The notes below the pieces were generated by a model, which saw only the letters and a program-made list of their open reading frames with translations, did no database searches and was not told where the DNA came from. This document shows positions 2,470-43,558 of a stretch of DNA of 64,000 bases, in pieces. The DNA is from Candidatus Hydrothermarchaeum profundi (GTDB taxonomy: Archaea; Hydrothermarchaeota; Hydrothermarchaeia; Hydrothermarchaeales; Hydrothermarchaeaceae). Within the stretch, counting starts at the first letter, position 1. Every line of letters begins with the position of its first letter. The translations under genes were made by a program, and so were the position numbers. The stretch spans positions 547,095-611,094 of the forward strand of contig MTMF02000009.1 of the NCBI GenBank assembly GCA_002011125.2, written 5' to 3'.

Positions 2470-2977
2470 CTAACCCGCTGGCGAGGCTTTCCTGCAACTG
2501 TCAGAACCAAAAGTAACGACCACGATATGCATTGTCCCCTTGTATTTACTCAGTCTCAGACTAGTGGGCTCTCCCCCTTCTAAAATATACAGACAGTCCA
2601 GAAGAGATTCTGATATCCTAATCCCGATTCTTTCTTTAAGCTGAAGGAACTCTTCCTCTAAAACGATTAAGCTGAGCCCTTGCCTCGCCGATTTTTTCCC
2701 GCTCCCCCTGCGAAAGCTGCTCGCCCTTAAGCAATTTTTTCCCCGTTCTCTCGACGTACCGGTCAAGGGAGACAACCCGGGAGATAAAAGTATCCTGTTG
2801 CAGAACTTCCCTCCGGGCATCGAGGGGAAGGGAAGCGACATCTCCTAAGGTTTTCTCTATTTCTTCCTTGAAGATCGGCCCGGCAATACCACGGCTTAGA
2901 CCGCCTAGTGCTTCAAGCTTTTTGAGGAACAGGATGCGATATGTCTCCCTGGTAACCTCGACCTCGAATTGCTCCAT
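2470..2977 (-). pseudogene. Helical hypothetical protein, probably frameshifted at the T4 run (2660-2663)
   Basis: Removing one T joins ORF 2636-2977 to the 2470 frame and gives the heptad-like EARAQLNRLEEEFLQLKERIG. Confidence 0.45.
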
Positions 2978-3061
2978 CGATTTGCAGAGAAGGGAGACGA
3001 ATCTATTAACCCTTCTTCAAGAACCCTTTCTTTCCAATCTTCCATTCTAGTTCCCCTCGTG

Positions 3062-3324
3062 TCACATAACGCAGAAGAATAAAGTTATGTCAAAGTATAT
3101 TGTTTTCCGGGTTCCATCAGAAAGTCTTAGCTCCATTCTATCGTAATGTTGCTACCTTTTTTAATAAGGCGTTGCCCGTCCAGTCTCTAATCCTTCTCAC
3201 GCTTTCCAAATTTCCTTTCGAGGTATTCGTATTCTGTAGCTATACTTTCGATGTTATTTTTCACATCCAAAATTATGATTGCCTCCTTTATTGATTCACC
3301 GCTTTTTTCTATGTACCTCGCTAT
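3062..3324 (-). pseudogene. Decayed small hypothetical gene
   Basis: Start reads ATA, in-frame TAG at 3187-3189, then a frameshift into HYDRMELRLSDGTRKTIYFDIT. Confidence 0.6.
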
Positions 3325-3328
3325 TTTT

Positions 3329-3628
3329 TTATTCCTCTTTGGACGATGAGACGGCCTTTTTAACCGCTTCTTCAACCAGGTCAGCCCAGTTATTATCGAG
3401 GCTGATTGCTCCCCACTGAAAGCCCTCCCTTCGCAGGGTGTTTCTAACGCTCAAGCCTAAGGAATGATGATACCCGAGGGACCAGTCCTCTCCTTTTTCC
3501 TTTATCACCTTCTTGAGCTCCGGCAGGGCTTCTCTATGATGTTTGATGATACAGTCTACGGCTTGCTTCCATTCTTTGTCTGTGATTACCTCTCCGGTAT
3601 CTTTCAACCTTAACTCAGGCGCAGCCAT
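3329..3628 (-). CDS. Hypothetical protein (HHSLGLSVRN motif, possibly DUF6794-like)
   Basis: Intact 99-aa ORF; motif resemblance only. Confidence 0.55.
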   Translation of the reverse strand: MAAPELRLKDTGEVITDKEWKQAVDCIIKHHREALPELKKVIKEKGEDWSLGYHHSLGLSVRNTLRREGFQWGAISLDNNWADLVEEAVKKAVSSSKEE

Positions 3629-3675
3629 GTTTTTAAATATTCTTGCTACTAAATAAATAGCTAATGGGAAGAACC

Positions 3676-3947
3676 ATGACTATCTTATCTCCAGAACGGG
3701 TTGCAGAGATGATTCGGAAACGATTGAGAGGCGAAATATCTCAAGAAGAACTCTCTGACTGGGCATGGAATGCCCACTGGAAAGAGGAGAAAAGGGAACA
3801 ATGCTATGAAGAAGGCAGCTTTCAAATGATAGCGGAAATAATTTTTGCCCTGGCTCATAGCGGGACAGAGGGTTCGAAATCGGTGAGCAAGAGCTGCGGA
3901 AATATCTGAAGCGACTTGAAAGAGTGCATCATGAAACGAAGGTCTAA
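3676..3947 (+). pseudogene. Small helical immunity-like protein, frameshifted near 3870
   Basis: LRGEISQEELSDWAW pattern; the shifted frame continues FEIGEQELRKYLKRLE and overlaps the SMI1 start. Confidence 0.5.
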
Positions 3948-4389
3948 TGTTATTTCCGAATTGGTTAGGCAGATTATCCTTTTAGGTATTGCATCCCCTG
4001 AAGAAATTCAGGGATGCACTCCGGAGGAGGTAGCAGAAATCCAGGCCGATGCAGGCGTTAAATTACCGGCAATTTATATAGATTTTTTATATGCGATGGG
4101 ACGGGGTGCAGGAAATTTTTTTAAAGGTTCAGATATGTTCTACCCGAGTTTGCTCGGCCTTCGAAAAGCAGCGGAAGAATTACTATCTGAAGAGGGTGCC
4201 TCTTTTTCTCTTCCCAAAGATGCTTTTGTTTTTTTGATGCATCAAGGCTATCAATTTATGTTCTTCCGAACCATTGAGCGCAACGACGACCCTCCGGTTT
4301 ATCATTATATGGAGGGAGAAGGAGTACCTCGAAAGATTTCAGCTAGCTTTTCTCAATTTCTGGTCGAAAGCGTTAGAGACCAGGTGTAG
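3931..4389 (+). CDS. SMI1/KNR4 (SUKH) family immunity protein
   Basis: GCTPEEVAEIQADAGVKLPAIYIDFL, FLMHQGYQF, DDPPVY and SFSQFL signatures. Confidence 0.88.
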   Translation: MKRRSNVISELVRQIILLGIASPEEIQGCTPEEVAEIQADAGVKLPAIYIDFLYAMGRGAGNFFKGSDMFYPSLLGLRKAAEELLSEEGASFSLPKDAFVFLMHQGYQFMFFRTIERNDDPPVYHYMEGEGVPRKISASFSQFLVESVRDQV

Positions 4390-4398
4390 TAGAAGGGC

Positions 4399-5568
4399 TT
4401 ATAGGAAATCACGGGCTCTTTTTATCCCGTCGATTATAACCCGGGCTTCATTCCTTAACTTCGGGTCATTCTCGTAGACCCACTGAGCATGAGTCAAAGC
4501 CTCCTCCAGCCGTCTTGCCCCCACAAGATACCAAGCGAGGCTGAGATGAGCCCGCCCATAGTTGGGGTCGAGTTCCACGGCTTTCTCAAGCAGCTCAATA
4601 AGCTCCTGGCCCCTCGCTTTCCCCGTGCGGGAATAAGCGATAGCCAGGTTATAGTAGGCCGCCGGATGGTCCGGTTTGAGCTCCAATAACCGTCGGAGCA
4701 GCTTTTCCAATTTTTTCCATTCTTGGAGCCTCCAGCCCAGGGATATCGCCAGAGCTATGAGCCAGGCATTCCATGGTTGCTCCTCGATAGCCTTAGAGAA
4801 CAGACTAAAAGCCTTCTCGTCTTCTCCTTTTCTCTCTGCTTCCAGGGCTTTCTTGGCATTTGTGGGGAGAAGCTCCAGAGTCGCGTGCACTGCGTCCTCC
4901 AGGGAAACAAGGAGGGGATATGGAGGAAGGCAGTTCCTAATACTCTGGATTGCTTTCGCCTTAGTGGAAAGCTTATCACTGTCTGGGTCGCATAGCTTCT
5001 TAGTCGCTTGAGAGAAGGGGTGTATGCAGGCCGAGTGGAACTTTGTTGTGACTATATCCACGAAGGACTGGATGGGGTTTAGAGGGGGATACAGCGCCCA
5101 GACAGCGTTTCTATGCCTTACCAGCCACTCCCCCCAGAAGGCTCCCATGGCGTAGTAGAGCAGAGGCTCCCTTGGGATCCTAACGCCTTCGGCTGCCTGC
5201 TCATATTCCTCCAGTTCCTTCTCGGTGAGGTCCTGACGGAGCTTAACCCCTTCAAAGTATTTCCTAAGGGAGGGGTCAATTAGGTGTTTGTTTGCAAAAC
5301 AGTCAAGCTGGGTCGAGTCAGGATTCTCCAAGTCAAGGGCGAACCCGAATACCTCATGGGCACCCTTCTGGAATGCCTTTGCCGCCGCAGCTATTGTCTT
5401 TGAATCGACGGGGTAGTTCTTTGAGTTCCTCGGTAGACCTGTTTCTCTCTGGATGAACTCAATGAAACGTGCTATATCTGGGGGCGTCTCCTCCATGAAT
5501 TCTGCACAAGGCTCATAAAAGCTTTTTACTGCTGAATTTTCTTTTCTGATATACTTTCTAGAACTCAT
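4399..5568 (-). CDS. TPR-containing protein with an unknown N-terminal domain
   Basis: C-terminal TPRs (PDHPAAYYNLAIAY, LEKAVELDPNYGRAHLSLA). Confidence 0.8.
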   Translation of the reverse strand: MSSRKYIRKENSAVKSFYEPCAEFMEETPPDIARFIEFIQRETGLPRNSKNYPVDSKTIAAAAKAFQKGAHEVFGFALDLENPDSTQLDCFANKHLIDPSLRKYFEGVKLRQDLTEKELEEYEQAAEGVRIPREPLLYYAMGAFWGEWLVRHRNAVWALYPPLNPIQSFVDIVTTKFHSACIHPFSQATKKLCDPDSDKLSTKAKAIQSIRNCLPPYPLLVSLEDAVHATLELLPTNAKKALEAERKGEDEKAFSLFSKAIEEQPWNAWLIALAISLGWRLQEWKKLEKLLRRLLELKPDHPAAYYNLAIAYSRTGKARGQELIELLEKAVELDPNYGRAHLSLAWYLVGARRLEEALTHAQWVYENDPKLRNEARVIIDGIKRARDFL

Positions 5569-32733: not shown

Positions 32734-33387
32734 ATGGAACTGGTGGGGATATCAGTCTTCGCAGCTGATAGAAAAGGCCTGTTAAGAGACATAACAACGG
32801 TAATAGCCAAGCATGGAGGTAATATAAGGTATATACAGCAGTTCCCCATGGATGAGGAAGTGCAAATCTATTTTGAGCTTGAGGATATAAAGGACTTTGA
32901 GTCTTTAATCTCAGATCTTAATAAAGTTGAAAGTGTTATCTTGGTAGAAAAGACACGCTCATTTGAAAGCATTTATGGTAAACGAGTGATAGTTATTGGG
33001 GGTGGAGCTCAGGTCGCGCAAGTCGTGCTGGGTGCTGTTAGTGAGGCGGACAGGCATAATATTAGAGGCGAGAGAATAAGCGTAGATACTATACCATTAG
33101 TCGGTGAAGAAAAGCTAGCGGAAGCCATTAGGGCTGTTGGAAGGCTTCATAGGGCGGCTATCCTAGTATTAGCGGGTTCAATAATGGGAGGTGAAGTCAC
33201 TAAAGCTGTGAAAGAACTGCGCGAGGATCATGGCATCCCCGTGATCTCGCTAAATATGGCTGGAGGCGTTACAAAAGTGTGCGACCTTGTTGTCACAGAT
33301 CCGGTCCAAGCAGGAGTTATGGCTGTTATGACAGTAGCTGATACGGCTAGCTTTGATATTAATAAGGTGAGGGGGAAAAAATTCTGA
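32734..33387 (+). CDS. ACT-domain protein (DUF5612 family)
   Basis: N-terminal ACT domain; [34 protein letters not shown]. Confidence 0.85.
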
Positions 33388-33398
33388 AGCAAAAACTT

Positions 33399-34169
33399 TT
33401 GAAATGGTTCGAAGATAAAGACGGAGCCGTAATAGCATTCTCTGGCGGGGTAGATAGCTCAGTTGTAGCAAAGGCGGCCAAAGAAGTTTTGGGTGGAAGG
33501 GCTATCGCTGTAACTTCTTTTTCACCTACATTTCCAAAATGGGAAGCAGAGTTAGCTAAAAAAGTTGCCATGGAAATAGGCATTAGATTGGAGATAGTAA
33601 ATGAAAATGAGCTGGAAAACCCGATGTTTGTTAGAAACCCGCCTAATAGGTGTTATTACTGTAGAAAAGGTCTTATCGAGGAGATAAAGAAGGTGGCGGA
33701 TGAGAATGGCATATCTCTAATTGTAGATGGTGCGAATTATGATGATATTAAGGAACATAGACCTGGTTTAAAGGCTATGAGAGAAGCTGGCGTCAGAAGT
33801 CCTCTAATTGAGCTTAAGTTAGGGAAAGAGGAAGTACGGGAGATCGCTAGAGAGTTTGGGCTTTCGGTAATGGATAAGCCTTCAATGGCGTGTCTTGCTT
33901 CTCGTATTCCTTATGGAGAATCTATTACGGGTTTTAAGTTAAAGAGAGTGGAAATGGCGGAGGATTTTTTAAGATCCATGGGAATTAAGCAATTAAGAGT
34001 TCGAAGTCATAAAAATACCGCTAGAATTGAAGTTTCTAATGGAGATGTTCTACGGGTGCTGGAGAATAGAGAAAAGATATTAAATAGGCTAACTCAGCTA
34101 GGTTTTGCCTATGTTACCCTCGATCTTGAAGGATATCGATCTGGCAGTATGGATGAAGTTTTAAAATAA
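33399..34169 (+). CDS. larE: ATP-dependent sulfur transferase LarE family
   Basis: PP-loop AFSGGVDS, RCYYCR, RPG, KPSMACLASRI, GYRSGSM. Confidence 0.9.
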   Translation: MKWFEDKDGAVIAFSGGVDSSVVAKAAKEVLGGRAIAVTSFSPTFPKWEAELAKKVAMEIGIRLEIVNENELENPMFVRNPPNRCYYCRKGLIEEIKKVADENGISLIVDGANYDDIKEHRPGLKAMREAGVRSPLIELKLGKEEVREIAREFGLSVMDKPSMACLASRIPYGESITGFKLKRVEMAEDFLRSMGIKQLRVRSHKNTARIEVSNGDVLRVLENREKILNRLTQLGFAYVTLDLEGYRSGSMDEVLK

Positions 34170-34286
34170 TTCTACGATAAAATTACAATTTTGCACATGT
34201 TTATTTTTTGTAGTCGAAAATATTCTCAAAATTTCGTTTGGTATTGTTCAACAGAAATAATTTATTACTAGAAATAATATTTTCAC

Positions 34287-34302
34287 CGAAAAATATTTAT
34301 AA
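34287..34302 (+). promoter_or_regulatory. BRE/TATA promoter of the sulfur-relay operon
   Basis: CGAAAAATATTTATAA about 30 nt before ATG 34332. Confidence 0.6.
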
Positions 34303-34331
34303 TAAGACATAAAGCGGTATTAGTGATTCTT

Positions 34332-35570
34332 ATGATCGTCGGATTAAAATGTAGAAATTGCGGTAAGAGGTATCCCGAAGAGCCTGTAAGCATCTGTGAG
34401 GATTGCTTTGGGCCACTAGAGGTTGAATACGACTACGAGAAAATTAAAGAATCTTTGAGTATAGAGAAGATAGAGAAAGGACCTAACACGCTCTGGAGAT
34501 ATAAAGATTTACTACCAGTAAAAAGCAAGGTCGTAGATTTAAAGGCAGGCTTTACGCCTCTTCATAAGGCGGATAATCTTGCTGAAGAACTCGGTTTAAA
34601 AGAGCTTTATATTAAAAATGACTCTGTTAATCCTACTTTTTCATTTAAGGATAGGGTGGTATCAGTCGCAGTTTCTAAAGCCTTAGAGTTTGGTTTCGAT
34701 ACAGTGGGGTGTGCTTCTACAGGGAATCTAGCAAATTCTGTCGCAGCTCATGCAGCGAAAGCTAAGTTAAAATGTTATATTTTTATACCTGCTGATCTGA
34801 ATTTGGGAAAAATTATTCAAACCCTAGTTTACGGTCCGAACTTAATAGGGGTAAAGGGGAATTATGACGAAGTAAACCGACTTTGCACAGAGATCGCAGG
34901 CTATTATGACTGGGGTTTTGTTAATATAAATTTACGGCCCTACTACGCAGAGGGCTCTAAGACATTAGGCTATGAAGTTGCTGAGCAGCTAGGATGGACT
35001 ACTCCAGATAGAATTGTAGTGCCGGTAGCATCAGGGTCTCTCTTAACCAAAATATGGAAAGGTTTCAATGAGTTGGTTGAAGTTGATATCATAGATGAAG
35101 TTAAAACAAGAGTTACGGCTGCACAGGCACAAGGATGTTCTCCAGTGGTTACTGCATTTCTAACAAACAGTGAGGTGAAGCCTGTAAGGCCTAATACTAT
35201 CGAAAAGAGTCTCGCAATAGGTAATCCTGCTGACGGCTATTATGCCGTTAAAGTGCTTAAAGAATCTATGGGCACTGCAGGTGCGGCGTCAGATGAAGAA
35301 ATTATAGATGGTATAAAGCTCTTAGCAAAGACTGAGGGCATATTCACAGAGACGGCCGGGGGAGTCGTTGTAGGCACATTAAAGAAACTTGTTGAAAATG
35401 GTGAAATCGATAAAGATGAGAGAGTTGTAATATACATTACTGGCAATGGGTTAAAGACTCAAGACGTATTGGCAGATTATCTGCCTTCACTTATTAAGAT
35501 AAATCCAGATCTTAATGAATTCAATGAACTTTTGAAAAAAAAGACTACTGTAAAGGAGGTGGCTATTTAA
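34332..35570 (+). CDS. Threonine synthase-like PLP enzyme (MoaD-associated clade)
   Basis: N-terminal CxxC/CxxC, NPTFSFKDR, ASTGNLA, RPYYAEGSKT, TGNGLK. Confidence 0.88.
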   Translation: MIVGLKCRNCGKRYPEEPVSICEDCFGPLEVEYDYEKIKESLSIEKIEKGPNTLWRYKDLLPVKSKVVDLKAGFTPLHKADNLAEELGLKELYIKNDSVNPTFSFKDRVVSVAVSKALEFGFDTVGCASTGNLANSVAAHAAKAKLKCYIFIPADLNLGKIIQTLVYGPNLIGVKGNYDEVNRLCTEIAGYYDWGFVNINLRPYYAEGSKTLGYEVAEQLGWTTPDRIVVPVASGSLLTKIWKGFNELVEVDIIDEVKTRVTAAQAQGCSPVVTAFLTNSEVKPVRPNTIEKSLAIGNPADGYYAVKVLKESMGTAGAASDEEIIDGIKLLAKTEGIFTETAGGVVVGTLKKLVENGEIDKDERVVIYITGNGLKTQDVLADYLPSLIKINPDLNEFNELLKKKTTVKEVAI

Positions 35571-35839
35571 TGGCTATTGTTAGGCTTGCTACTCCCCTGC
35601 GGAAATATAGTCAGGGAAAGCCTGAGATTACAGCTCCGGGGAAAACTTTGAAAGAGGTTATTATGAACATAGATTCTGCTAGCCCGGGTTTTGCTGAAAA
35701 AATCTTAGAAAATGACGAGATAAAGAGATTTGTAAATATCTATGTGAATAATGAGGATGTAAGGTTAGGGGATGGGTTGAATACAAAAGTGGGAGAAAAA
35801 GATACTATCTCTATACTTCCAGCAGTATCAGGTGGTTAA
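35570..35839 (+). CDS. Ubiquitin-like sulfur carrier (MoaD/ThiS/SAMP/CysO family)
   Basis: FVNIYVNNED and C-terminal ILPAVSGG. Confidence 0.93.
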   Translation: MAIVRLATPLRKYSQGKPEITAPGKTLKEVIMNIDSASPGFAEKILENDEIKRFVNIYVNNEDVRLGDGLNTKVGEKDTISILPAVSGG

Positions 35840-35842
35840 CTA

Positions 35843-36331
35843 ATGGTACTCATTTATAGTACACCTATCGAAAAGTGGGAATGTGCGTATAAGGAATGCG
35901 GAGCCAAATGTTGTACAGGCGGTAGAGAAGTTACTGCCGGGGATATAAGAAGGATAGCAAGGGCTACCGGACTTAAGCCGGAAAAGTTTGTGCATTTAGA
36001 GGATGAGAAAGGACTTTTCAGGTTAAAAAATGGTGATAGATGCGTATTCCTTAATGACGACTACTCGTGCCGTTTGCATAAAAGGGGAGTCAAGCCAATA
36101 TTCTGCCGTATGTACCCCTTTAAATTTGAAGGAGTTATTTATGCGGATGAAATAGTCCTTAAGGTTAAAGTCACGGATAACTGCCCTGGAATCGGTAGGG
36201 GACATAAGATTGGGGAAGATTTGGAGGCTACTATAGAAGAACTTGGGAATAAATTTGTAAACGAGATAAAAGATTTCTTAAGATTAAAGGGAGAAGGGTT
36301 GTCAAATGAGTCTATCATTGGAAGAGATTAA
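35843..36331 (+). CDS. YkgJ family cysteine-cluster (Zn/Fe-S) protein
   Basis: CAYKECGAKCC, CVFL, KPIFCRMYPF, CPGIG. Confidence 0.85.
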   Translation: MVLIYSTPIEKWECAYKECGAKCCTGGREVTAGDIRRIARATGLKPEKFVHLEDEKGLFRLKNGDRCVFLNDDYSCRLHKRGVKPIFCRMYPFKFEGVIYADEIVLKVKVTDNCPGIGRGHKIGEDLEATIEELGNKFVNEIKDFLRLKGEGLSNESIIGRD

Positions 36332-37103
36332 AAGGTATAGCAGGCAACTCGTGTTGCCGGACTTTGGTAGTAGAGAGCAGAATAGGCTTAAAAAAGCCAA
36401 GGTAGCTGTTACTGGCGCTGGAGGACTTGGATGCCCGATATCAACTTACTTGACCTTAGCAGGCGTAGGAAGAATCGACATAATTGACATGGATAAGCTA
36501 GATCTTACTAATTTGAACAGACAATTTCTGTATAGTGTTGAGGATATAGGAAAGCCTAAGGCTGAACTGGCTGCTAAGCGTTTGAGCGAGATAAATCCAG
36601 AGATAGAAATCAATGGTATCACAGAAATGATAACGTACGATAACGCGTTTGACCTCCTTAAAGGATACGATGCGGTAGTTGATGGAACAGATAATTTTCC
36701 GGTTAGATATGCGGTTAATGATGCGTGTGCGGTTAACAGAGTACCTCTCTTCCATGGAGCAGTGCTGATGTATGAGGGCCGGGCTATGAGCATAATTCCT
36801 AAGGAAACTGCATGTTTTAGATGCGTTTTTCCAGAAGCACCGCCTGCAGGTACAGTGCCCACTTGTAGGGAAGCCGGCGTTATAGGCGCAATGACAGGAA
36901 TGGTTGGAGCTATTCAAGCATTAGAGGCGATAAGATATCTTGCTGGAAAAGAGATAGCCCTTAAGAATACACTATTGGTTATAAATGCCGATACTATGGA
37001 TTTCGATAAGATCAAGGTAACTAGAAAGGAAGATTGTACTGCATGCGGCGAGAAATTTATCGCTAAGCCTGTAGTTTATGTTTGCGAAGATGAGGGAAAC
37101 TAA
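36306..37103 (+). CDS. MoeB/ThiF/UbaA E1-like adenylyltransferase
   Basis: RYSRQ, GAGGLG, NLNRQ, DGTDNF, CFRC, catalytic TCREAG, CTAC. Confidence 0.93.
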   Translation: MSLSLEEIKRYSRQLVLPDFGSREQNRLKKAKVAVTGAGGLGCPISTYLTLAGVGRIDIIDMDKLDLTNLNRQFLYSVEDIGKPKAELAAKRLSEINPEIEINGITEMITYDNAFDLLKGYDAVVDGTDNFPVRYAVNDACAVNRVPLFHGAVLMYEGRAMSIIPKETACFRCVFPEAPPAGTVPTCREAGVIGAMTGMVGAIQALEAIRYLAGKEIALKNTLLVINADTMDFDKIKVTRKEDCTACGEKFIAKPVVYVCEDEGN

Positions 37104-37104
37104 A

Positions 37105-37350
37105 ATGGAGCCTGAAGTCTTTGACCTTAGAGGGGAAAAATGCCCGGATACCTTCGTTTACACAAAAGTGAAGTTAGAAGAGCTGGCGTACTCTGGCGGT
37201 GGTCTTTTAAAGGTTATCGTAGATTATCCGCCGGCAGCTGAGAATATCCCTAGGAGTCTGAAGGAGGAGAAAATAAAGTACGAGGTTTTAGATGTTAAAA
37301 AAGTTGGAGATAAGACCTACGAATTGCTAATAAAAGCTCCTCCGGTATGA
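37105..37350 (+). CDS. tusA: TusA/SirA family sulfurtransferase
   Basis: DLRGEKCPDTF, DYPPAAENIP. Confidence 0.85.
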   Translation: MEPEVFDLRGEKCPDTFVYTKVKLEELAYSGGGLLKVIVDYPPAAENIPRSLKEEKIKYEVLDVKKVGDKTYELLIKAPPV

Positions 37351-38279
37351 TGATTATGGAAAACATAAGAGCACATTTAGGGATGAAGTACAACTTAGTT
37401 GGGGTTAAAATCCTCAAGGAAAAACCAGTAGATATAGAAAAGCCTACTAGAAAGCTTCGTTACTGTGAGATGGTAAGAAAAGCTGCTAATGGCGAAGTGA
37501 TTACTGCGGAGCATGAGGATATAGCATGCCCCAATGCTGAGGTAACCCTCGGTTTTGTTGAGCCTGTGTATGTTGACATACAGCCACGTATTTCTCCAGC
37601 GGAAACTAAAGTGGTTAAGGTTGGTCCATTAGATAAAATTCGAGATCCTGATATCATACTAGCGATTCTTAATCCGAGGCAGGCAATGGAGGTTGCGTCC
37701 ATAATGGACGGCCTTGAAGCAAAGTTTGCGGGCAGTATGGCGGTTTGCGGAGAGGCTACCGCTAAGCCATATATGGAGAAAAAAAGTAATGTAACGATGC
37801 TTTGCGGTGGAGCGAGGACTTTTGCGGATTTCAGGGATTCAGATCTGATAGTAGGAGGTCCCCCTGAGTTTTTTGAAGAACTGTCAAAGAGAATATCTGC
37901 TCTTTCAAAGACCTGCGTGGCTCTTTGCGGTTGCAAAACAAGTGACCTCTCTCCACGTATAATTGAGAGCTTTAGGAAGATAGGCTTCGAGAAGGGAACT
38001 GACTATTTCTTTGGCAAGGTTGATGGTACAAATGTTAGGATATATTTAAACAAAGACACGCATGGTAAGATAAAGTACATAACTGTGCATATACCCCTTA
38101 GGGGAGTTGAAGTAAAAGCAAAAGAACCTTTGATAGTCAAGAAGAGGGGAAATTGGACAGATGTGGCGATGACCTTCGGTTTAGGCGAGGCGATTGATTT
38201 AAACACTGGCAGGGGACTCAAAGAGGCTATTATGGATATACTCAAAAAGGTTAGTGATTCAAAGGTAATAGCCAGATGA
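37347..38279 (+). CDS. DUF169 protein with a C-terminal extension
   Basis: YCEMV, ACPNA, AVCGEA, LCGGAR, plus CVALCGC. Confidence 0.75.
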   Translation: MMIMENIRAHLGMKYNLVGVKILKEKPVDIEKPTRKLRYCEMVRKAANGEVITAEHEDIACPNAEVTLGFVEPVYVDIQPRISPAETKVVKVGPLDKIRDPDIILAILNPRQAMEVASIMDGLEAKFAGSMAVCGEATAKPYMEKKSNVTMLCGGARTFADFRDSDLIVGGPPEFFEELSKRISALSKTCVALCGCKTSDLSPRIIESFRKIGFEKGTDYFFGKVDGTNVRIYLNKDTHGKIKYITVHIPLRGVEVKAKEPLIVKKRGNWTDVAMTFGLGEAIDLNTGRGLKEAIMDILKKVSDSKVIAR

Positions 38280-39460
38280 GTGTATCACCCGAGTTTTCTG
38301 CTATGGATGTGGGTAATTTGAGTTACAGGTATAAAGACTTCATAATAATAAATCCGCTGATGAGGGGGGGAATAGTGCCTAAGAGTGTTACTGAGAGGCT
38401 CTGTGATGAAGGATGGTTAGAAGTAGGGTATAATCTCTGCCACGATTGCATTGAAGGTAGATCGAGTCTAATAACAAAGCCGAATGTGAAGGAATTTCTT
38501 TCGGAGATAGCTGTATTTTTTGGTGGTGACGAGGCAGAGCATACCTTTGGATGTAGGGCAGCGCAGTTTGCAGTCATGAAAACCATATCAGAGGTATCTC
38601 CGGATGGGGTAGTTTTATCGGATCCTAACAGCCACTACTCTACGAACATAGCTGCGGAGATGTGTGGTCTGAAAGTCGTTGAGTCACCGCATACGGGATA
38701 TCCTGAATATAAAGTTGAGGTGGACTCCGTTATTGAGAAGATAGAGGAGATAGGTAATCCTGCTCTTGTGGTAATGACTCATGCTGATCCGTATTATGGG
38801 AACCTAGCTCCAGTTAAAGAAATAGGTAAAGTATGTGCTGAGAAAGAGATACCTTATATGGTGAACTCCGCTTATACTGGCGGTGTAATGCCTATCAATA
38901 TGAAGGATTTAAACGCCGACTTCTTGACTTTATCCGCTCATAAGTCGATGGCGTCTATTGGTCCTCTAGGATTTCTAGTCACAACTTATGAGTGGTCTAG
39001 AAAGGTATTTGCGCTTTCTAAGTCTAAGCCGGATTGGACTGGCAGGGCGTTTGGTAAAAAAATCCCTAATGTCTTTGGCTGCAGTATTGGCGGCCTCCCC
39101 TTGGTCTGTGCAATGAATTCATTCCCCTATGTTAAGGAGAGAGTCAAAAAATGGGACGAGGAGATAAATAAAACCAATAAGTTTATTGATGCAATGGAGG
39201 ACCTGGGAGATATAATGCTTCTGGGTGAGCGGCCTCATAGGCATCATCTTCTTCATTTTGAGACGCCTCTCTTCTGGGAGATATCTAAAAAGCATAGGCG
39301 GAAAGGATTCTTCCTTGCGGAAGAAATGATAAAACGAGGCATTGTTGGCCTGCACAAGGGTCTAAGCAAGCATATAAAGCTGTCGGTATATGGGCTCAGC
39401 GATGAAGAGGTCAGCAAGGTGTTAGAGGCGTTTAAAGAGGTTGCTGAAATATCAGCTTAA
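38276..39460 (+). CDS. pscS: Sep-tRNA:Cys-tRNA synthase (SepCysS) homologue, divergent
   Basis: INPLMRGG, CHDC, SHYS, NSAY, SAHKSMAS (PLP Lys), FGCS, FETP, KLSVYGL. Confidence 0.82.
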   Translation: MSVSPEFSAMDVGNLSYRYKDFIIINPLMRGGIVPKSVTERLCDEGWLEVGYNLCHDCIEGRSSLITKPNVKEFLSEIAVFFGGDEAEHTFGCRAAQFAVMKTISEVSPDGVVLSDPNSHYSTNIAAEMCGLKVVESPHTGYPEYKVEVDSVIEKIEEIGNPALVVMTHADPYYGNLAPVKEIGKVCAEKEIPYMVNSAYTGGVMPINMKDLNADFLTLSAHKSMASIGPLGFLVTTYEWSRKVFALSKSKPDWTGRAFGKKIPNVFGCSIGGLPLVCAMNSFPYVKERVKKWDEEINKTNKFIDAMEDLGDIMLLGERPHRHHLLHFETPLFWEISKKHRRKGFFLAEEMIKRGIVGLHKGLSKHIKLSVYGLSDEEVSKVLEAFKEVAEISA

Positions 39461-39711
39461 TCACTAAATCCTCTGATTAAGACCTCAACGTTGGCGTCTT
39501 TTACTCCTTCAATTTTTTTAATTTCTCTCTCACCTCTAACGGCTAGCACGAAATTATATGGGCAGCTGCTCAAGATGCCTCGCATCTTAACATTTACCAC
39601 TTCACCCTCTATTTTTACTTCTTCTATGAGGCCTAGGTCAACTATGTTGCTGCCTGCCCTTATGCTGTGCACTCTTCTTAGTGCTCCTAATACTTCTTCC
39701 TCCGTTACCAT
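39457..39711 (-). CDS. DUF59 / metal-sulfur cluster assembly factor
   Basis: NIVDLGLI and SSCP. Confidence 0.8.
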   Translation of the reverse strand: MVTEEEVLGALRRVHSIRAGSNIVDLGLIEEVKIEGEVVNVKMRGILSSCPYNFVLAVRGEREIKKIEGVKDANVEVLIRGFSD

Positions 39712-40526
39712 ATTACCCTTAAGCTCATGTCAAGCCATTTACTGGCGGTAGTTAGTGATCCCATGGAGATTATATCCGGCTTTAACTTTATGTAGGAGTC
39801 TATATTCTTCTCAGTGATTCCTCCGGAGATCTCTATTTTTACCTTTTTCCTATATCCTTTTTCTTTTATCTTCTCTATTATTTTTTCTGCTTTATCAGGT
39901 GTCATATTATCAAGCATTATTATATCAACTCCTAACTCGCAGGCTGTGAGGGCTTCTTCAGCGTTCTTAACCTCAACTTCTAATGTCTTGGATTTATTTT
40001 TACTTCTTGCTTTTTTTATAGCCTCTTCTAATCCTACGATAGCAATATGATTATCCTTGATTAAATATGCTTCATCCAAAGTATTTCTATGAGGCCATCC
40101 TCCTCCGACTTTTATGGCTTTTTTCTCGAAGTATCTAAACCCTGGGGTGGTCTTCCTAGTGCCCGCTATGATAACACCATAGGCTGAGCTTTTTTTTACA
40201 AGCATGTGGGTATAGGTGGCGATCCCACTCATCCTCATAAGTATATTGAGGAGGACTCTTTCGATCGTTAGAATATTCCTGGCGTTGCCGTTAATCTTGA
40301 GAATGACATCTCCTTTTCCAATGGCATCACCGTCTTTCAGGCTTGACTCATATTTAAGGCCGAAATGTTCTAAGAGCAGTATTGATTCTTCTAGGCCAGC
40401 TAGAACCCCATCTTCTTTAGCGATTACTTCTGCGCTTATTTTTTGGTTCTTAGGTATAGTAGCCTGCGTAGTAATATCCTCTTTCCCTATATCTTCTTTT
40501 AAAAAATCTAATAATTTAGAAATCAT
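39705..40526 (-). CDS. nadC: Quinolinate phosphoribosyltransferase
   Basis: EDIGKEDIT, RMSGIAT, TRKTTPG, IKDNH, EVEV, IMLDN, SGGI. Confidence 0.95.
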   Translation of the reverse strand: MISKLLDFLKEDIGKEDITTQATIPKNQKISAEVIAKEDGVLAGLEESILLLEHFGLKYESSLKDGDAIGKGDVILKINGNARNILTIERVLLNILMRMSGIATYTHMLVKKSSAYGVIIAGTRKTTPGFRYFEKKAIKVGGGWPHRNTLDEAYLIKDNHIAIVGLEEAIKKARSKNKSKTLEVEVKNAEEALTACELGVDIIMLDNMTPDKAEKIIEKIKEKGYRKKVKIEISGGITEKNIDSYIKLKPDIISMGSLTTASKWLDMSLRVIW

Positions 40527-40570
40527 GCTATTGAAATTATTTATACACGGCATATAACTATTAATTTTTT

Positions 40571-41089
40571 ATGCGTGCTCTATTGGTAATCGATATGCTA
40601 AACGACTTCGTAAGAGAGGATGGGGCGCTTCCAGTGCCGGGCGCTAACAAGCTAATAGAGCCTATAAACAAATTAATTGGGGAATTTCGGGAGAGAAAGG
40701 AGCCAATAATCTTCGTACAGGATTCCCATGATGAGGATGACAGGGAATTCAAGGCATGGCCTAAGCATGCGGTAGAGGGAACTGAAGGGGCTGAGGTAAT
40801 AAAGGAGCTGGATAAAAGGCCAGAGGATATAGTGGTTAAAAAGAAGAGGTACTCTGCCTTCTACAATACTGATCTAGATGATATATTGAGAGAGAAGGGC
40901 GTTGACACGCTCGTGTTGACCGGAGTGCTCACAGATATTTGTGTGATGCATACTGCTACCGATGCAGCCATGAGGAATTATAAGATAATTGTGCCTGAAA
41001 ATTGCGTAGCATCATCTACCGAGGAAAACCATAAGTGGGCGATAAAGCACATGAAGGAAATCCTCCTTGAAGTCGAAGTCATTGCCTGA
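40571..41089 (+). CDS. pncA: Nicotinamidase (isochorismatase family)
   Basis: VIDMLNDF, DSH, WPKHA, KKRYSAF, GVLTDICV; lies within the NAD cluster. Confidence 0.85.
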   Translation: MRALLVIDMLNDFVREDGALPVPGANKLIEPINKLIGEFRERKEPIIFVQDSHDEDDREFKAWPKHAVEGTEGAEVIKELDKRPEDIVVKKKRYSAFYNTDLDDILREKGVDTLVLTGVLTDICVMHTATDAAMRNYKIIVPENCVASSTEENHKWAIKHMKEILLEVEVIA

Positions 41090-41500
41090 TCCTTCCCAAA
41101 GCGTCCACAACGATTCCTTCATGTAGCCATAGTAGGGCGTGTACTCTCTATTATCTTTTACGTAGGTATAAGTCAGGGCAGGGTTATGGTCTAACTGCTT
41201 TTGAAAGGATGACTATCTCCTCAGGGATAATATTAGGGGCTCCTTCGTCGGCGAAGACCTCGCTTATGAAGCTGAAGATGTGTCCCATGAGTTATCCTTC
41301 TTGACGGCGGATTACCCTGTTTTATCTTAGGCTTTTCCTTGGGGTAGCTTGTCCTTGGCTTTATCTTCTTTCCCTTACTAGTCCTGGTTGGCAACTCTTT
41401 TGGGATATTGACCTCCTACCTTTTAGCTTTTTGCCGTCTCCTCTAAGGCTATGTTGAGTTCTGTCAGCTGTGTATAATTCCTGAAAGTTGCTGATTTCCA
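41070..41500 (-). pseudogene. Remnant of a transglutaminase-like domain gene
   Basis: PEEIVILSK (frameshift) QLDHNPALTYTYVKDNREYTPYYGYMKESLWTLWEGSGNDFD. Confidence 0.55.
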
Positions 41501-41630
41501 ATATAGGAATTATAGCGGTACTTGTTTTATACTTTATTAGAAAAATTTCTTTTTAATGATTTTATTGTAAAATGATAAGATTTTTCTAATGTGCCTTGAA
41601 AATAATATGGATAACTGGGGGTAATCGTTT

Positions 41631-42005
41631 TTGGCGGAGATTATTGTAACTATCGGCGGCAAAATAATTGAAGTAGAGCTTTGCGAGTCTCTTATATGTT
41701 CAAAAATACTAGATGCCTTGCCTATCCGCTCAAAGGCAAGTAGATGGGGTGATGAGGTTTATTTTTCAATACCGGTTGAGGCAAGCTCAGATGAAAATAA
41801 AAAAGAAATTCTTGAGATAGGAGATGTTTGTTACTGGGAAGCAGGGAGAGCAATCGCTATATTCTTCGGCCCAACTCCAGTAAGCGAGGGCGATGAATGC
41901 AGGGCATATGAACCCGTTAGTGTAATAGGAAAGGTGGTTAAAGGCATTGAGCTGTTAAAGTCGGTAAAAGACGGAGATGAGGTTAAAGTTGAGTTAGCAA
42001 GGTGA
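41631..42005 (+). CDS. Cyclophilin-like fold protein (DUF369)
   Basis: ALPI, RWGDEVYF, GDVCYW, IFFGPTP. Confidence 0.88.
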   Translation: MAEIIVTIGGKIIEVELCESLICSKILDALPIRSKASRWGDEVYFSIPVEASSDENKKEILEIGDVCYWEAGRAIAIFFGPTPVSEGDECRAYEPVSVIGKVVKGIELLKSVKDGDEVKVELAR

Positions 42006-42011
42006 AAAAAT

Positions 42012-42152
42012 ATGAAGATCAAAGATGTGGTATGTGATTGCGAGGTTGATAAAAACAAGGCATTTAAAAAAGAGTATAAAGGCAAAATCTATTTCTTCTG
42101 CACCCCAACATGCCGGGTAGCATTTGAGGATAATCCAGAGAAATACATCTAA
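42012..42152 (+). CDS. YHS/TRASH metal-binding microprotein (not in the ORF track)
   Basis: MKIKDVVCDCEVD...YKGKIYFFCTPTCRVAFEDNPEKYI; AGGTGA RBS. Confidence 0.85.
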   Translation: MKIKDVVCDCEVDKNKAFKKEYKGKIYFFCTPTCRVAFEDNPEKYI

Positions 42153-42155
42153 GAT

Positions 42156-42398
42156 TTATCTCATCTCTTTAGAGATCTGTGCAAGAGTCTTTATACCGTC
42201 CTCTGTGAGAAAGTAGCTATCTTCACGCTTTTCTACTAAACCCTTTTTTGAAAGCTCCTCAAGCGATTTATTCACCCTTGGGAGACTTATCCTGAGTTTG
42301 TGGGAAATAGCCTTAGGCGTTGCTTCAGATTTAAGTACCTCCATTATTCTCAGCCTATACTTATCTGCTTTAACAAACCCTATTATCGAAACATCCAT
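42156..42398 (-). CDS. Winged-helix transcriptional regulator
   Basis: TPKAISHKLRISLPRVNKSLEELSKKGLV...YFLTEDG. Confidence 0.8.
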   Translation of the reverse strand: MDVSIIGFVKADKYRLRIMEVLKSEATPKAISHKLRISLPRVNKSLEELSKKGLVEKREDSYFLTEDGIKTLAQISKEMR

Positions 42399-42400
42399 AA

Positions 42401-43558
42401 CTACACCTCAAGCTTTTTCAACTGCTCAAGAGTATAATCTCTGATCTCATCCACCGAGGGTAAATCTCTAACTATCTTCCCACCCCTAATAAGAGGAGTT
42501 AGCATACTTTTCATTTCCACTTTACAGCTATCGCATATTACACTTTTAGAGCCGTTGCTTGGCATAATTTTATCCTTAAGGCAATTAGGGCACCGGTAGA
42601 CCTCCTTCTTTCCACCGTATTTACCCCTTTTAGCAACAGGCTTTCCTTCCATTTCAACAATATCCATGGCGAAGTCTATAGTCTTAGAGTTGCTTATACT
42701 CGTCCCAATACCAAAGCCGTCTGCATTTGTGAACTCGACTATATTATTCTCGTCAACTCCACCTGACACAAAAATCATTACGTCCTTGTACCCCCTCAAA
42801 TCCAGTTCCCAACGGACTTCATCAATTATCTTCTTCATATTACCCCTCCTAGATCCAGGAGTATCAAGACGTACCCCTTTAAGCCCTTTGACGGCTTCAG
42901 CTGCCATTATTGACTCGATTTTCTCATCATAATAGGTGTCAACTAGAGCGATCCTTGGCACATCCTTGTCAACTACCTCGTCAAAGTACCTCCAAGCTGT
43001 AACTTGGTCTCCTACAACAATAATTAGTGCATGAGGCATAGTACCAGAAGCTCTCTTGCCGATGATTTTTTCTGCAGCAACGCAAGAAAATCCATCTAAG
43101 CCTCCTATATAAGCAGCTCTATCTATCATTGGCGCAAGGATTGGATGCATCCTACGAACTCCAAAGCTCAGTATAGTCTTATCGCCTGCAAGCTTTTTCA
43201 GCCTCGCTGATTTAGTTGTTATTCCTGAAGCCTGGCAAATTAATCCTAGCATGGGCGTTTCAAGCTCGCAAAACTCGGAGTACATTCCCTCAATCCTTAC
43301 AACGGGTTCAATAGGATAAAACACGCTTCCTTCAGGGAATGTATCTATGTTAACATTATATCCCTCAAATAAATATGCCAGCTCTTCTATTCCGGATAAT
43401 ATGCCCCATTTATAGTTCAGGGGTAGGGAGCTAGTAGTGCATTCTGCGATAACTCTTTTATCAATGCCCTTCTTTTTAATGACTTCTCTAGCCCTAACGA
43501 AATAGATATCTGTGGTTCTACCTTTCTTTACCTCGTCTTCAGATGCTGTATGAAACAT
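42401..43558 (-). CDS. pncB: Nicotinate phosphoribosyltransferase
   Basis: TDIYF, SFGVRR, GTMPHA, LVDTY, GVRLDT, SGG, GFGIGT. Confidence 0.93.
   Translation of the reverse strand: MFHTASEDEVKKGRTTDIYFVRAREVIKKKGIDKRVIAECTTSSLPLNYKWGILSGIEELAYLFEGYNVNIDTFPEGSVFYPIEPVVRIEGMYSEFCELETPMLGLICQASGITTKSARLKKLAGDKTILSFGVRRMHPILAPMIDRAAYIGGLDGFSCVAAEKIIGKRASGTMPHALIIVVGDQVTAWRYFDEVVDKDVPRIALVDTYYDEKIESIMAAEAVKGLKGVRLDTPGSRRGNMKKIIDEVRWELDLRGYKDVMIFVSGGVDENNIVEFTNADGFGIGTSISNSKTIDFAMDIVEMEGKPVAKRGKYGGKKEVYRCPNCLKDKIMPSNGSKSVICDSCKVEMKSMLTPLIRGGKIVRDLPSVDEIRDYTLEQLKKLEV

Follow-up and report, generated by a model that had tools for sequence, protein, structure and literature searches.

Small proteins that carry activated sulfur are known from several biosynthetic systems. 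In Mycobacterium tuberculosis, the CysM/CysO/MoeZ/Mec system synthesizes cysteine with a protein thiocarboxylate as the sulfur nucleophile for a pyridoxal 5′-phosphate (PLP) enzyme, and Wolinella succinogenes has a thiocarboxylate-type homocysteine synthesis (HcyS/HcyF/HcyD/MetY). In Escherichia coli, TusA relays sulfur to MoaD/MoeB and to tRNA thiolation, and Haloferax has the UbaA/SAMP system. Here, we describe a gene cluster in which components of this kind are joined to the gene for SepCysS, a Sep-tRNA:Cys-tRNA synthase. The cluster lies in a stretch of 64,000 nucleotides of Candidatus Hydrothermarchaeum profundi (contig MTMF02000009.1, positions 547,095–611,094 of the forward strand; hereafter, the window), and it runs from a ThrC-like PLP enzyme through a ubiquitin-like carrier, an E1 enzyme, TusA and a DUF169 protein to SepCysS.

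The closest published pathway is the carrier-thiocarboxylate-dependent O-phosphohomoserine route MetM/MetO of Streptomyces albulus, as far as the accessible text of its sources describes it (Hasebe et al., 2024, Applied and Environmental Microbiology; via PMC13759103, its preprint, PMC12172450). The GapMind entry, in the part available, lists MetM, MetO, MoeZ and Mec as a thiocarboxylate route from O-phosphohomoserine, and an excerpt of a paper in mSystems describes a Microcystis ThrC that lies beside a metO-like gene and is 51.6% identical to S. albulus MetM. Iyer et al. (2006) include the E1/carrier operon classes. Regarding SepCysS, the available portion of a 2008 review states that sulfide suffices in vitro and that the natural sulfur donor “awaits further investigation.” For methanogens, the accessible part of Price et al. 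(2018) proposes COG2122 (MA1715) as the persulfide loader of SepCysS, and DUF39 plus a NIL-ferredoxin for homocysteine. Our literature search, which had most subscription journals and supplements outside its range, returned no paper linking SepCysS to TusA, ThiF or MoaD, and for SepCysS with thiocarboxylate it returned an unrelated mention only.

The open reading frame list and two profile scans placed seven abutting or overlapping genes on the plus strand at 34323–39460. A first-pass annotation of this DNA had named the same run, with larE upstream and a DUF59 gene convergent on it, and all of these genes were confirmed at their places, with scores above the curated family cut-offs. The seven genes are as follows (scores in bits, “vs” introducing the cut-off).

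34323–35570, plus strand: ThrC-like PLP enzyme (MetM-like); PF00291, 235.2; TIGR00260, 312.5–313.3 vs 167.1; N-terminal Cys4 ribbon
35570–35839, plus strand: ThiS/MoaD-fold carrier (MetO-like) of 89 residues, ending in ...PAVSGG-stop; PF02597, 47.8 vs 22.5
35843–36331, plus strand: YkgJ/CxxCxxCC protein with eight cysteines; PF03692, 34.2 vs 23
36306–37103, plus strand: E1 of the ThiF family (MoeB/UbaA type), 265 residues; PF00899, 279.9
37078–37350, plus strand: TusA; PF01206, 56 vs 28.6
37347–38279, plus strand: long-form DUF169 protein, 310 residues; PF02596, 112.4 vs 27, in two stretches
38276–39460, plus strand: SepCysS; NF006810, 394.1 vs 301; TIGR02539, 365.9 vs 365.25 (borderline)

From the ThrC-like gene to SepCysS, the junctions measure −1, +3, −26, −26, −4 and −4 nucleotides (minus denotes overlap). 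We consider, with a probability of roughly 55%, that this run is one operon in which MetM and SepCysS draw on a single relay of protein-bound sulfur, with DUF169 delivering the sulfur to SepCysS. An uncultured hydrothermal archaeon would thus hold both of its sulfur amino acid routes in one tight operon, and DUF169 is a testable candidate for the sulfur supplier of SepCysS, which has long been sought. The proposal builds on direct observations of gene content, family membership, gene-order conservation and the absence of alternative pathways.

We began from the ThrC-like gene in one neighbourhood scan, which returned 80 loci at 56–78% identity from Archaea, Nitrospirota, Aquificota, Chloroflexota, Cyanobacteriota, Actinomycetota and other phyla (loci from seeded scans are numbered L and genomes G; G000 is the source genome, and C9 and C11 are its contigs). 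A carrier homologue lay downstream in 73 of the 80 loci. A stricter script, whose filter kept 78 loci and left L024 and L029 outside, found the carrier within 1 kb downstream in 72; among the six carrier-less loci, three had < 700 bp of sequence left, and three, from Aquificaceae, had room but no carrier. The bacterial homologues in the scan, including the cyanobacterial ones, were 56–66% identical to the ThrC-like enzyme, and most had the downstream carrier. In a quick maximum-likelihood tree, the carrier-linked ThrC sequences, the operon's enzyme among them, formed one group (Shimodaira–Hasegawa-like approximate likelihood ratio test, SH-aLRT, 89), and the carrier was within 1 kb downstream in 76 of 82 rows; another group (SH-aLRT 95) contained the genome's other thrC together with second ThrC copies of Nitrospirota, none of them with a carrier. 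The carrier tail PA(V/I)(A/S)GG was conserved among homologues. The protein ended exactly at GG in 33 of 74 homologues, including all 6 Hydrothermarchaeota relatives, and carried 1–20 extra residues in the remaining 41.

The source assembly (2.19 Mb, 97.65% complete) contains a separate thrC at G000:C9:408840–410051, which scored better against TIGR00260 than the operon copy (376.7 vs 312.5–313.3 bits) and is 41.6% identical to it. The second canonical thrC that the first-pass annotation proposed to look for is therefore present, and the ThrC-like enzyme is not the genome's only ThrC. A third ThrC relative is a clear cysteate synthase (L004:895–2151, minus strand = G000:C9:1574338–1575594; TIGR03844, 495.4 vs 324.9), which is a hint of a sulfonate product such as coenzyme M. 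The ThrC-like enzyme itself was ruled out as a cysteate synthase, with 71 bits against the cut-off of 324.9 and the true cysteate synthase encoded elsewhere.

Other routes to free cysteine and homocysteine were sought across the same genome. CysK/CysM (TIGR01136) was not found, the best score being 81.9 vs 344.15 for an IlvA-like gene, and the ThrC-like enzyme reached 23.7. The DUF39/HcyBio search gave no match, the search for MetY/MetB/MetC-type enzymes (Cys_Met_Meta_PP) gave no genuine enzyme (best 26.8 bits), and the ApbE-family search gave no match (PF02424, a rough proxy only for COG2122). Classical ThrB (TIGR00191) returned nothing above the cut-off; O-phosphohomoserine can nevertheless be made, because a ThrB2-type “proposed homoserine kinase” is present (561 vs 446.3 bits). 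On these comparisons, the ThrC-like enzyme and its carrier are probably MetM and MetO, a predicted homocysteine synthase acting on O-phosphohomoserine. The first-pass annotation had suggested an O-phospho(homo)serine sulfhydrylase; its O-phosphohomoserine part agrees with MetM/MetO, and its O-phosphoserine and free cysteine part gained no support. The homocysteine half is thus a new archaeal member of a pathway that has been in print since 2024, and that part of the earlier suggestion was right without being new.

Between the carrier and DUF169 lie YkgJ, the E1 and TusA. The E1 has ThiF (residues 11–245) as its sole Pfam match and no rhodanese domain, and so is not of the MoeZ type; C170, C173, C187, C244 and C247 were kept in 41 of 41 sequences, and the PF00899 search gave a single match, which makes it the genome's sole ThiF-family gene. 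Three stand-alone GG carriers are encoded in the genome: the operon's own and two more, of which one is MoaD-like and the other ThiS-like. Additionally, a carrier domain is fused into a protein of 584 residues, with a MoaD-like domain at the N-terminus and 2x[4Fe-4S] ferredoxin (L096:1–1725, minus strand = G000:C11:935–2689). TusA is a single-copy gene by tblastn, and its persulfide cysteine, Cys22, was kept in 26 of 26 sequences. All eight cysteines of YkgJ were kept in 13 of 13 sequences; the gene has an equivalent position in relatives, and also in L116 and L158, and is absent in L159, and its product is presumed to be an Fe–S or Zn accessory of the relay.

From this gene content we infer every chemical step that follows, including the transfers from TusA to E1 and from DUF169 to SepCysS, as well as the single transcript. 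The E1 would adenylate the C-terminal Gly–Gly of the MetO-like carrier. Sulfur would then be added to form the thiocarboxylate, with the TusA persulfide as the likely donor, since the E1 has no rhodanese domain, and perhaps with help from the eight-cysteine YkgJ. The MetM-like ThrC paralogue would use the carrier thiocarboxylate to convert O-phosphohomoserine, supplied by the ThrB2-type kinase encoded elsewhere, into homocysteine, and an unlinked stand-alone JAB peptidase may release the product. SepCysS would convert the Sep-tRNA(Cys) made by SepRS, the O-phosphoseryl-tRNA synthetase, into Cys-tRNA(Cys) with sulfur from the same relay, passed on through the long DUF169 protein. The cysteine cluster of DUF169 would carry this sulfur, either as persulfide or as Fe–S-bound sulfide, and the C-terminal domain of the protein may be its docking site for SepCysS.

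As the first-pass annotation had stated, no JAB peptidase or cysteine desulfurase lies inside the cluster; both were found elsewhere in the genome. The Prok-JAB gene is at G000:C9:867546–867953 (PF14464, 76.7 bits; NCBIfam desampylase, 119.4 vs 130), and a NifS cysteine desulfurase is on another contig (595.6 vs 530.75 bits). Because of these genes, DUF169 and YkgJ need not act as peptidase or desulfurase, and the idea that one of them stands in for these enzymes is unnecessary. The fold searches with DUF169 returned no peptidase or desulfurase fold, and trimming of the carrier is not needed, since it already ends at GG.

The SepCysS of the window is the genome's only match above the cut-off. 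K223 (the PLP lysine), C55, C58 and C269 were invariant in alignments of 21 and 9 sequences and align with those of PDB 3wkr, and the matches to PDB 3wkr, 5x6b and 2e7i (Methanocaldococcus jannaschii and Archaeoglobus fulgidus) had E values of 3e-87 to 4e-84, that of M. jannaschii being 3e-87. SepRS, which was also among the genes to be sought, is encoded at C9:1186717–1188270 (TIGR00470, 749.6 vs 380.65). The former label “SepCysS homologue” therefore understated the sole SepCysS of the genome, in which the PLP lysine and all three catalytic cysteines are present; it is very probably the working enzyme. The genome also encodes a cysteinyl-tRNA synthetase (CysRS) and a shorter CysRS-like gene (L118, G000:C9:444536–445750, plus strand) with a frame of 413 residues (376.8 vs 340); the latter covers positions 1–401 of the 466 of the cysS model, and its C-terminal part is apparently missing. 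An 8-residue insertion precedes the catalytic cysteine of SepCysS and is missing in the M. jannaschii enzyme. As a marker of DUF169 it was rejected, being absent in G022 but present in G018, and so was a 3-residue “GW” insertion, which is missing in the DUF169-bearing L113.

The linkage to SepCysS is conserved elsewhere, according to neighbourhood scans seeded with DUF169 and with SepCysS and a survey of 35 genomes of the order. The DUF169-seeded scan gave 15 loci, which correspond to 14 genes, since one gene is split over the contig ends L111 and L115, and SepCysS abuts DUF169 in all 14 (gap ≤ 245 bp). These loci span several phyla and include metagenome-assembled genomes (MAGs) labelled Caldisericum (a bacterium) and Altiarchaeota, as well as unclassified archaea; a swapped order, E1–TusA–SepCysS–DUF169, is found in L113 and L114. 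In the order-wide survey, where coordinates were compared by hand, DUF169 was found in 29 of the 35 genomes and SepCysS (E ≤ 1e-50) in 33. The two genes were neighbours on one contig in 17 genomes from 9 of 10 families, one pair being convergent, as confirmed in L161. DUF169 was not found in 6 of the 35 genomes, and 2 more were undecided at contig ends. Judging by this recurrence of gene order in related genomes, the cluster is not a product of chance.

Two genomes separate the two halves of the cluster. G018 keeps the ThrC-like, carrier, E1 and TusA genes and has no YkgJ and no DUF169. G022 (L158/L163) keeps the ThrC-like, carrier and YkgJ genes (72–78% identity) and has no TusA and no intact DUF169; at L158:2436–4309 (minus strand), the E1–TusA–DUF169–SepCysS segment has given way in place to another E1 (41% identity) with another SepCysS directly behind it (36% identity, 572 bits). 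The homocysteine genes are kept in both without an intact DUF169, and therefore the homocysteine branch does not depend on DUF169. Both genomes carry a different, higher-scoring SepCysS type, so DUF169 follows the SepCysS type and not MetM, and its presence tracks that type in G012, G013, G018 and G022. The E1–SepCysS junction of G022 was kept, though both genes were replaced. A scan with the G022-type SepCysS gave 25 loci, in 5 of which (one from Methanocellales, four from Hadarchaeota) E1 is directly upstream and co-directional; E1 is divergent in 2 further loci, and in an Archaeoglobaceae locus DUF169 lies 3′ of SepCysS. In the four Hadarchaeota loci (L178, L180, L181 and L182; about 2940–5190, plus strand), the E1 frame directly before SepCysS has 340–345 residues, with an N-terminal extension; this extension matches a ThiS/MoaD carrier in L178 and L182, and L182 also has a separate upstream GG carrier. 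Taken together, the neighbourhoods make a functional link between SepCysS and the E1, TusA and DUF169 genes likely.

DUF169 is the component for which the literature search found no functional study. The family is small, comprising 280 cluster representatives at E ≤ 0.001 among 1.84 billion. In its core (residues 1–190), C40, C61, C134, C153, D102, G155 and R157 are near-invariant, and the four core cysteines are kept also in short forms without the C-terminal domain. In the long form, an ALCGC motif marks the domain linker and is followed by a C-terminal α/β domain of 110 residues (200–310), and there is no cysteine beyond residue 195. AlphaFold2 modelled the protein with confidence, with a predicted local distance difference test (pLDDT) score of 91.5 overall and 95.9 in the core. 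The C-terminal domain resembles the type III secretion system (T3SS)-chaperone/YbjN fold at Z 7.0–7.7 and, less closely, E2/ubiquitin E2 variant chains at Z 4.5–6.2, both below the caution line of Z 8; the sequence had no match among solved structures at E ≤ 1. Some bacterial DUF169 proteins are fused to 4Fe–4S ferredoxin domains, and the control Bacteroides thetaiotaomicron has DUF169 without SepCysS, whereas the two methanogens used as controls have the two genes together in their genomes. A DUF169 gene lies beside a TauE/SafE sulfite exporter in Desulfovibrio, and DUF169 has been listed among the genes that co-occur with YedE. On plasmids, the one match was weak (26% identity, an unannotated Acetoanaerobium record), with no NifS, SepCysS, TusA or E1 within 4 kb.

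For the SepCysS–DUF169 pair, the complex prediction gave an interaction prediction score from aligned errors (ipSAE) of 0.44 (runs 0.44, 0.45 and 0.38), against 0.00 for the best of three controls; contact agreement between the runs was at least 62%, with a partner pLDDT of at least 81. Of 80 solved complexes, 58 reached the mark applied here, as did 2 of 110 mismatched pairs; at ≤ 0.60, only 7 of the 80 and both mismatches reached it. The prediction was graded as “weak support.” We treat DUF169 as a tentative candidate for the direct sulfur donor of SepCysS. The wider idea that long DUF169 is a dedicated partner of this kind for one SepCysS type, loaded by TusA or by the E1-activated carrier, and that many archaea supply their tRNA-dependent cysteine synthesis through a ubiquitin-like E1/carrier relay and not with free sulfide, is put forward with somewhat less than even confidence.

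A different donor would fit part of these neighbourhoods. The carrier thiocarboxylate might itself donate to SepCysS, as CysO-COSH does to CysM, with TusA, YkgJ and DUF169 acting upstream, where they would load or reduce sulfur on the intermediate of E1 and carrier, and DUF169 not touching SepCysS. The PLP aminoacrylate chemistry of SepCysS is the same as that of CysM, and E1 lies directly before SepCysS without DUF169 in L164, L178, L180, L181, L182 and G022, with the carrier-like E1 extensions of L178 and L182, and the separate carrier of L182, pointing the same way. DUF169 also stays with E1 and TusA in L014 and L016 after SepCysS has moved. However, L147, L183 and L112 have a DUF169–SepCysS pair near which neither E1 nor TusA was detected, and loading of the carrier does not depend on DUF169, since G018 keeps MetM, MetO, E1 and TusA without it. 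Furthermore, a thiocarboxylate adduct on tRNA-bound cysteine would require a hydrolase, and none is linked. We regard direct donation by the carrier as unlikely.

Several results weigh against the single relay, and some of them bear on a second alternative, in which the genes are merely co-regulated: MetM, MetO, E1 and TusA would make homocysteine, SepCysS would use free sulfide, and DUF169 and YkgJ would have unrelated redox or housekeeping roles. Operon linkage could mean co-regulation alone, and sulfide is enough for SepCysS in vitro, according to the portion of the 2008 review cited above. Among the 29 genomes of the order with both genes, 10 have DUF169 and SepCysS on separate contigs or at a long distance from each other. 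The SepCysS-seeded scan found DUF169 upstream in only 7 of 25 genes, two of them from Bathyarchaeota, and among the SepCysS genes of Bathyarchaeia the majority lack all of these neighbours; in the JdFR-16 lineage, the cluster stops at DUF169 (L014 and L016), and SepCysS lies among unrelated genes (L155). Set against this separation, adjacency with overlapping stop and start codons recurs in several phyla, DUF169 tracks the SepCysS type in the four genomes named above, and other versions of E1 and SepCysS became neighbours anew in G022 and in Hadarchaeota. Co-regulation alone is thus improbable in our judgement.

Other points count against parts of the proposed relay. The MetM/MetO identity comes from an indirect chain through cyanobacterial homologues to S. 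albulus MetM and from the absence of other homocysteine routes. The step from homocysteine to methionine was not found, as no MetE (PF01717) or MetH (PF02574) domain was detected in the genome; this search would probably overlook a MesC-type enzyme, as PF01717 also left the MesC-only control Methanosarcina acetivorans unmatched. That M. acetivorans has MesC only is taken from the accessible part of Price et al. (2021). The JAB gene is unlinked and below its desampylase cut-off, the score of the SepCysS–DUF169 complex is weak, and the fold of the DUF169 core had no convincing counterpart: the best Foldseek E value was 0.1, and VIA-align against 48,161 chains gave a best Z of 4.1 (thiolase-like halves), with none at Z ≥ 5. 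A third alternative, that DUF169 is a structural adaptor (a SepCysE/SepCysSn analogue) bridging SepCysS to SepRS or tRNA and carrying no sulfur, would suit a C-terminal domain with a protein-binding type of fold, the complex prediction and the occasional position of DUF169 beside SepRS that is mentioned in the available text of Mukai et al. (2022), but it is the least probable of the three in view of the four near-invariant core cysteines shared with the short forms, the ferredoxin fusions, the occurrence without SepCysS in B. thetaiotaomicron and the steady linkage with TusA and E1. The relay that serves both MetM and SepCysS through DUF169 is the reading that we retain.

Four further features flank the seven-gene run.

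32734–33387, plus strand: ACT + DUF5612 protein, 12 nucleotides before larE; PF18462, 243.7 bits; PF01842, 56.6 bits
33399–34169, plus strand: LarE-type PP-loop ATP-dependent sulfur transferase; TIGR00268, 310.7 bits vs 150
34170–34322, plus strand: AT-rich intergenic region of 153 nucleotides with a TATA-like box
39457–39711, minus strand: DUF59/FeS_assembly_P protein, convergent, with a 4-nucleotide overlap with the SepCysS stop; PF01883, 41.5 bits

The intergenic region is the sole sizeable gap, and its TATA-like sequence, TTTATAATAA, stands about 25 nucleotides ahead of the start of the ThrC-like gene. From its sequence, it is plausibly the archaeal promoter, and the single one, of the seven-gene run. 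A sigma-70 promoter scan was discarded, as its signal was at shuffle level and the model is not applicable to an archaeon. The Rfam search of the whole window matched no family, and hence no S-adenosylmethionine (SAM) riboswitch was found there.

Upstream of this promoter, the cysteines C85, C88 and C165 of LarE were kept in three of three sequences. LarE is also upstream of the cluster in L107/L154, L111 and L161, and the order MtnA (minus strand), ACT–DUF5612, LarE and ThrC-like recurs in L107 and L154, both of which are one MAG. LarC is present in the genome, and a genome-wide search for the LarA N-terminal domain found none. The ACT + DUF5612 protein is possibly an amino-acid-sensing regulator and is an uncertain member of the unit. 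A LarE-type PP-loop gene also lies directly 3′ of SepCysS on an archaeal contig that is not related (L184:835–1569, plus strand). At the other end, the DUF59 gene is probably not part of the operon; a convergent pair of DUF59 and quinolinate phosphoribosyltransferase (QRPTase) genes is also found 3′ of SepCysS in L013/L131 and L144. Downstream in the window, 39705–43558 holds a group for salvage and synthesis of nicotinamide adenine dinucleotide, with a QRPTase (NadC-like), an isochorismatase-family protein, a cyclophilin-like protein, a small winged helix-turn-helix regulator and a nicotinate phosphoribosyltransferase-like protein.

The natural sulfur donor of SepCysS is an open question, and this locus offers expressible candidates for it, namely TusA, the four-cysteine DUF169 protein and the E1/carrier pair. 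In the genome that holds these candidates, SepCysS is the only cysteine route and MetM/MetO is the only recognisable homocysteine route. Through this locus, the MetM/MetO pathway would reach into the archaea, its sulfur being loaded by another module. For DUF169, a family that has neither a solved structure nor a known role, the locus offers a first clue to function. If the relay through DUF169 is real, it would name a new function for a protein family and close a gap that has been open since the discovery of SepCysS.

In comparison with known systems, the locus most resembles MetM/MetO of S. albulus, in which a ThrC-homologous PLP enzyme also lies directly before a ThiS/MoaD-fold GG carrier and is accompanied by an E1. 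The differences are that the E1 lacks the rhodanese domain of MoeZ, with TusA and YkgJ in its place; that the carrier here ends at GG, the JAB/Mec-like gene is unlinked and there is no SAM riboswitch; and that SepCysS and DUF169 are appended. With the CysM/CysO and Wolinella systems, it shares a protein thiocarboxylate that feeds a PLP enzyme and an E1 and carrier in one operon, whereas its PLP enzyme is of the ThrC type, and neither CysM nor MetY, and its cysteine branch is tRNA-dependent. As in E. coli and Haloferax, a TusA persulfide would feed the E1/carrier pair and one E1 would serve several carriers; here, however, the end products are amino acids, and the cluster has no IscS partner, NifS being on another contig. 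The SepRS–SepCysE–SepCysS transsulfursome of class I methanogens (PDB 3wkr and 5x6b) has the same SepCysS catalytic residues, while the SepCysS described here has the 8-residue insertion and DUF169 as its neighbour. Finally, in the COG2122/DUF39 system of methanogens, accessory proteins that co-occur with SepCysS likewise deliver sulfide into homocysteine and tRNA-bound cysteine; as DUF39 is absent here and no ApbE-family match was found, the relay of this archaeon would be a non-homologous alternative to it.

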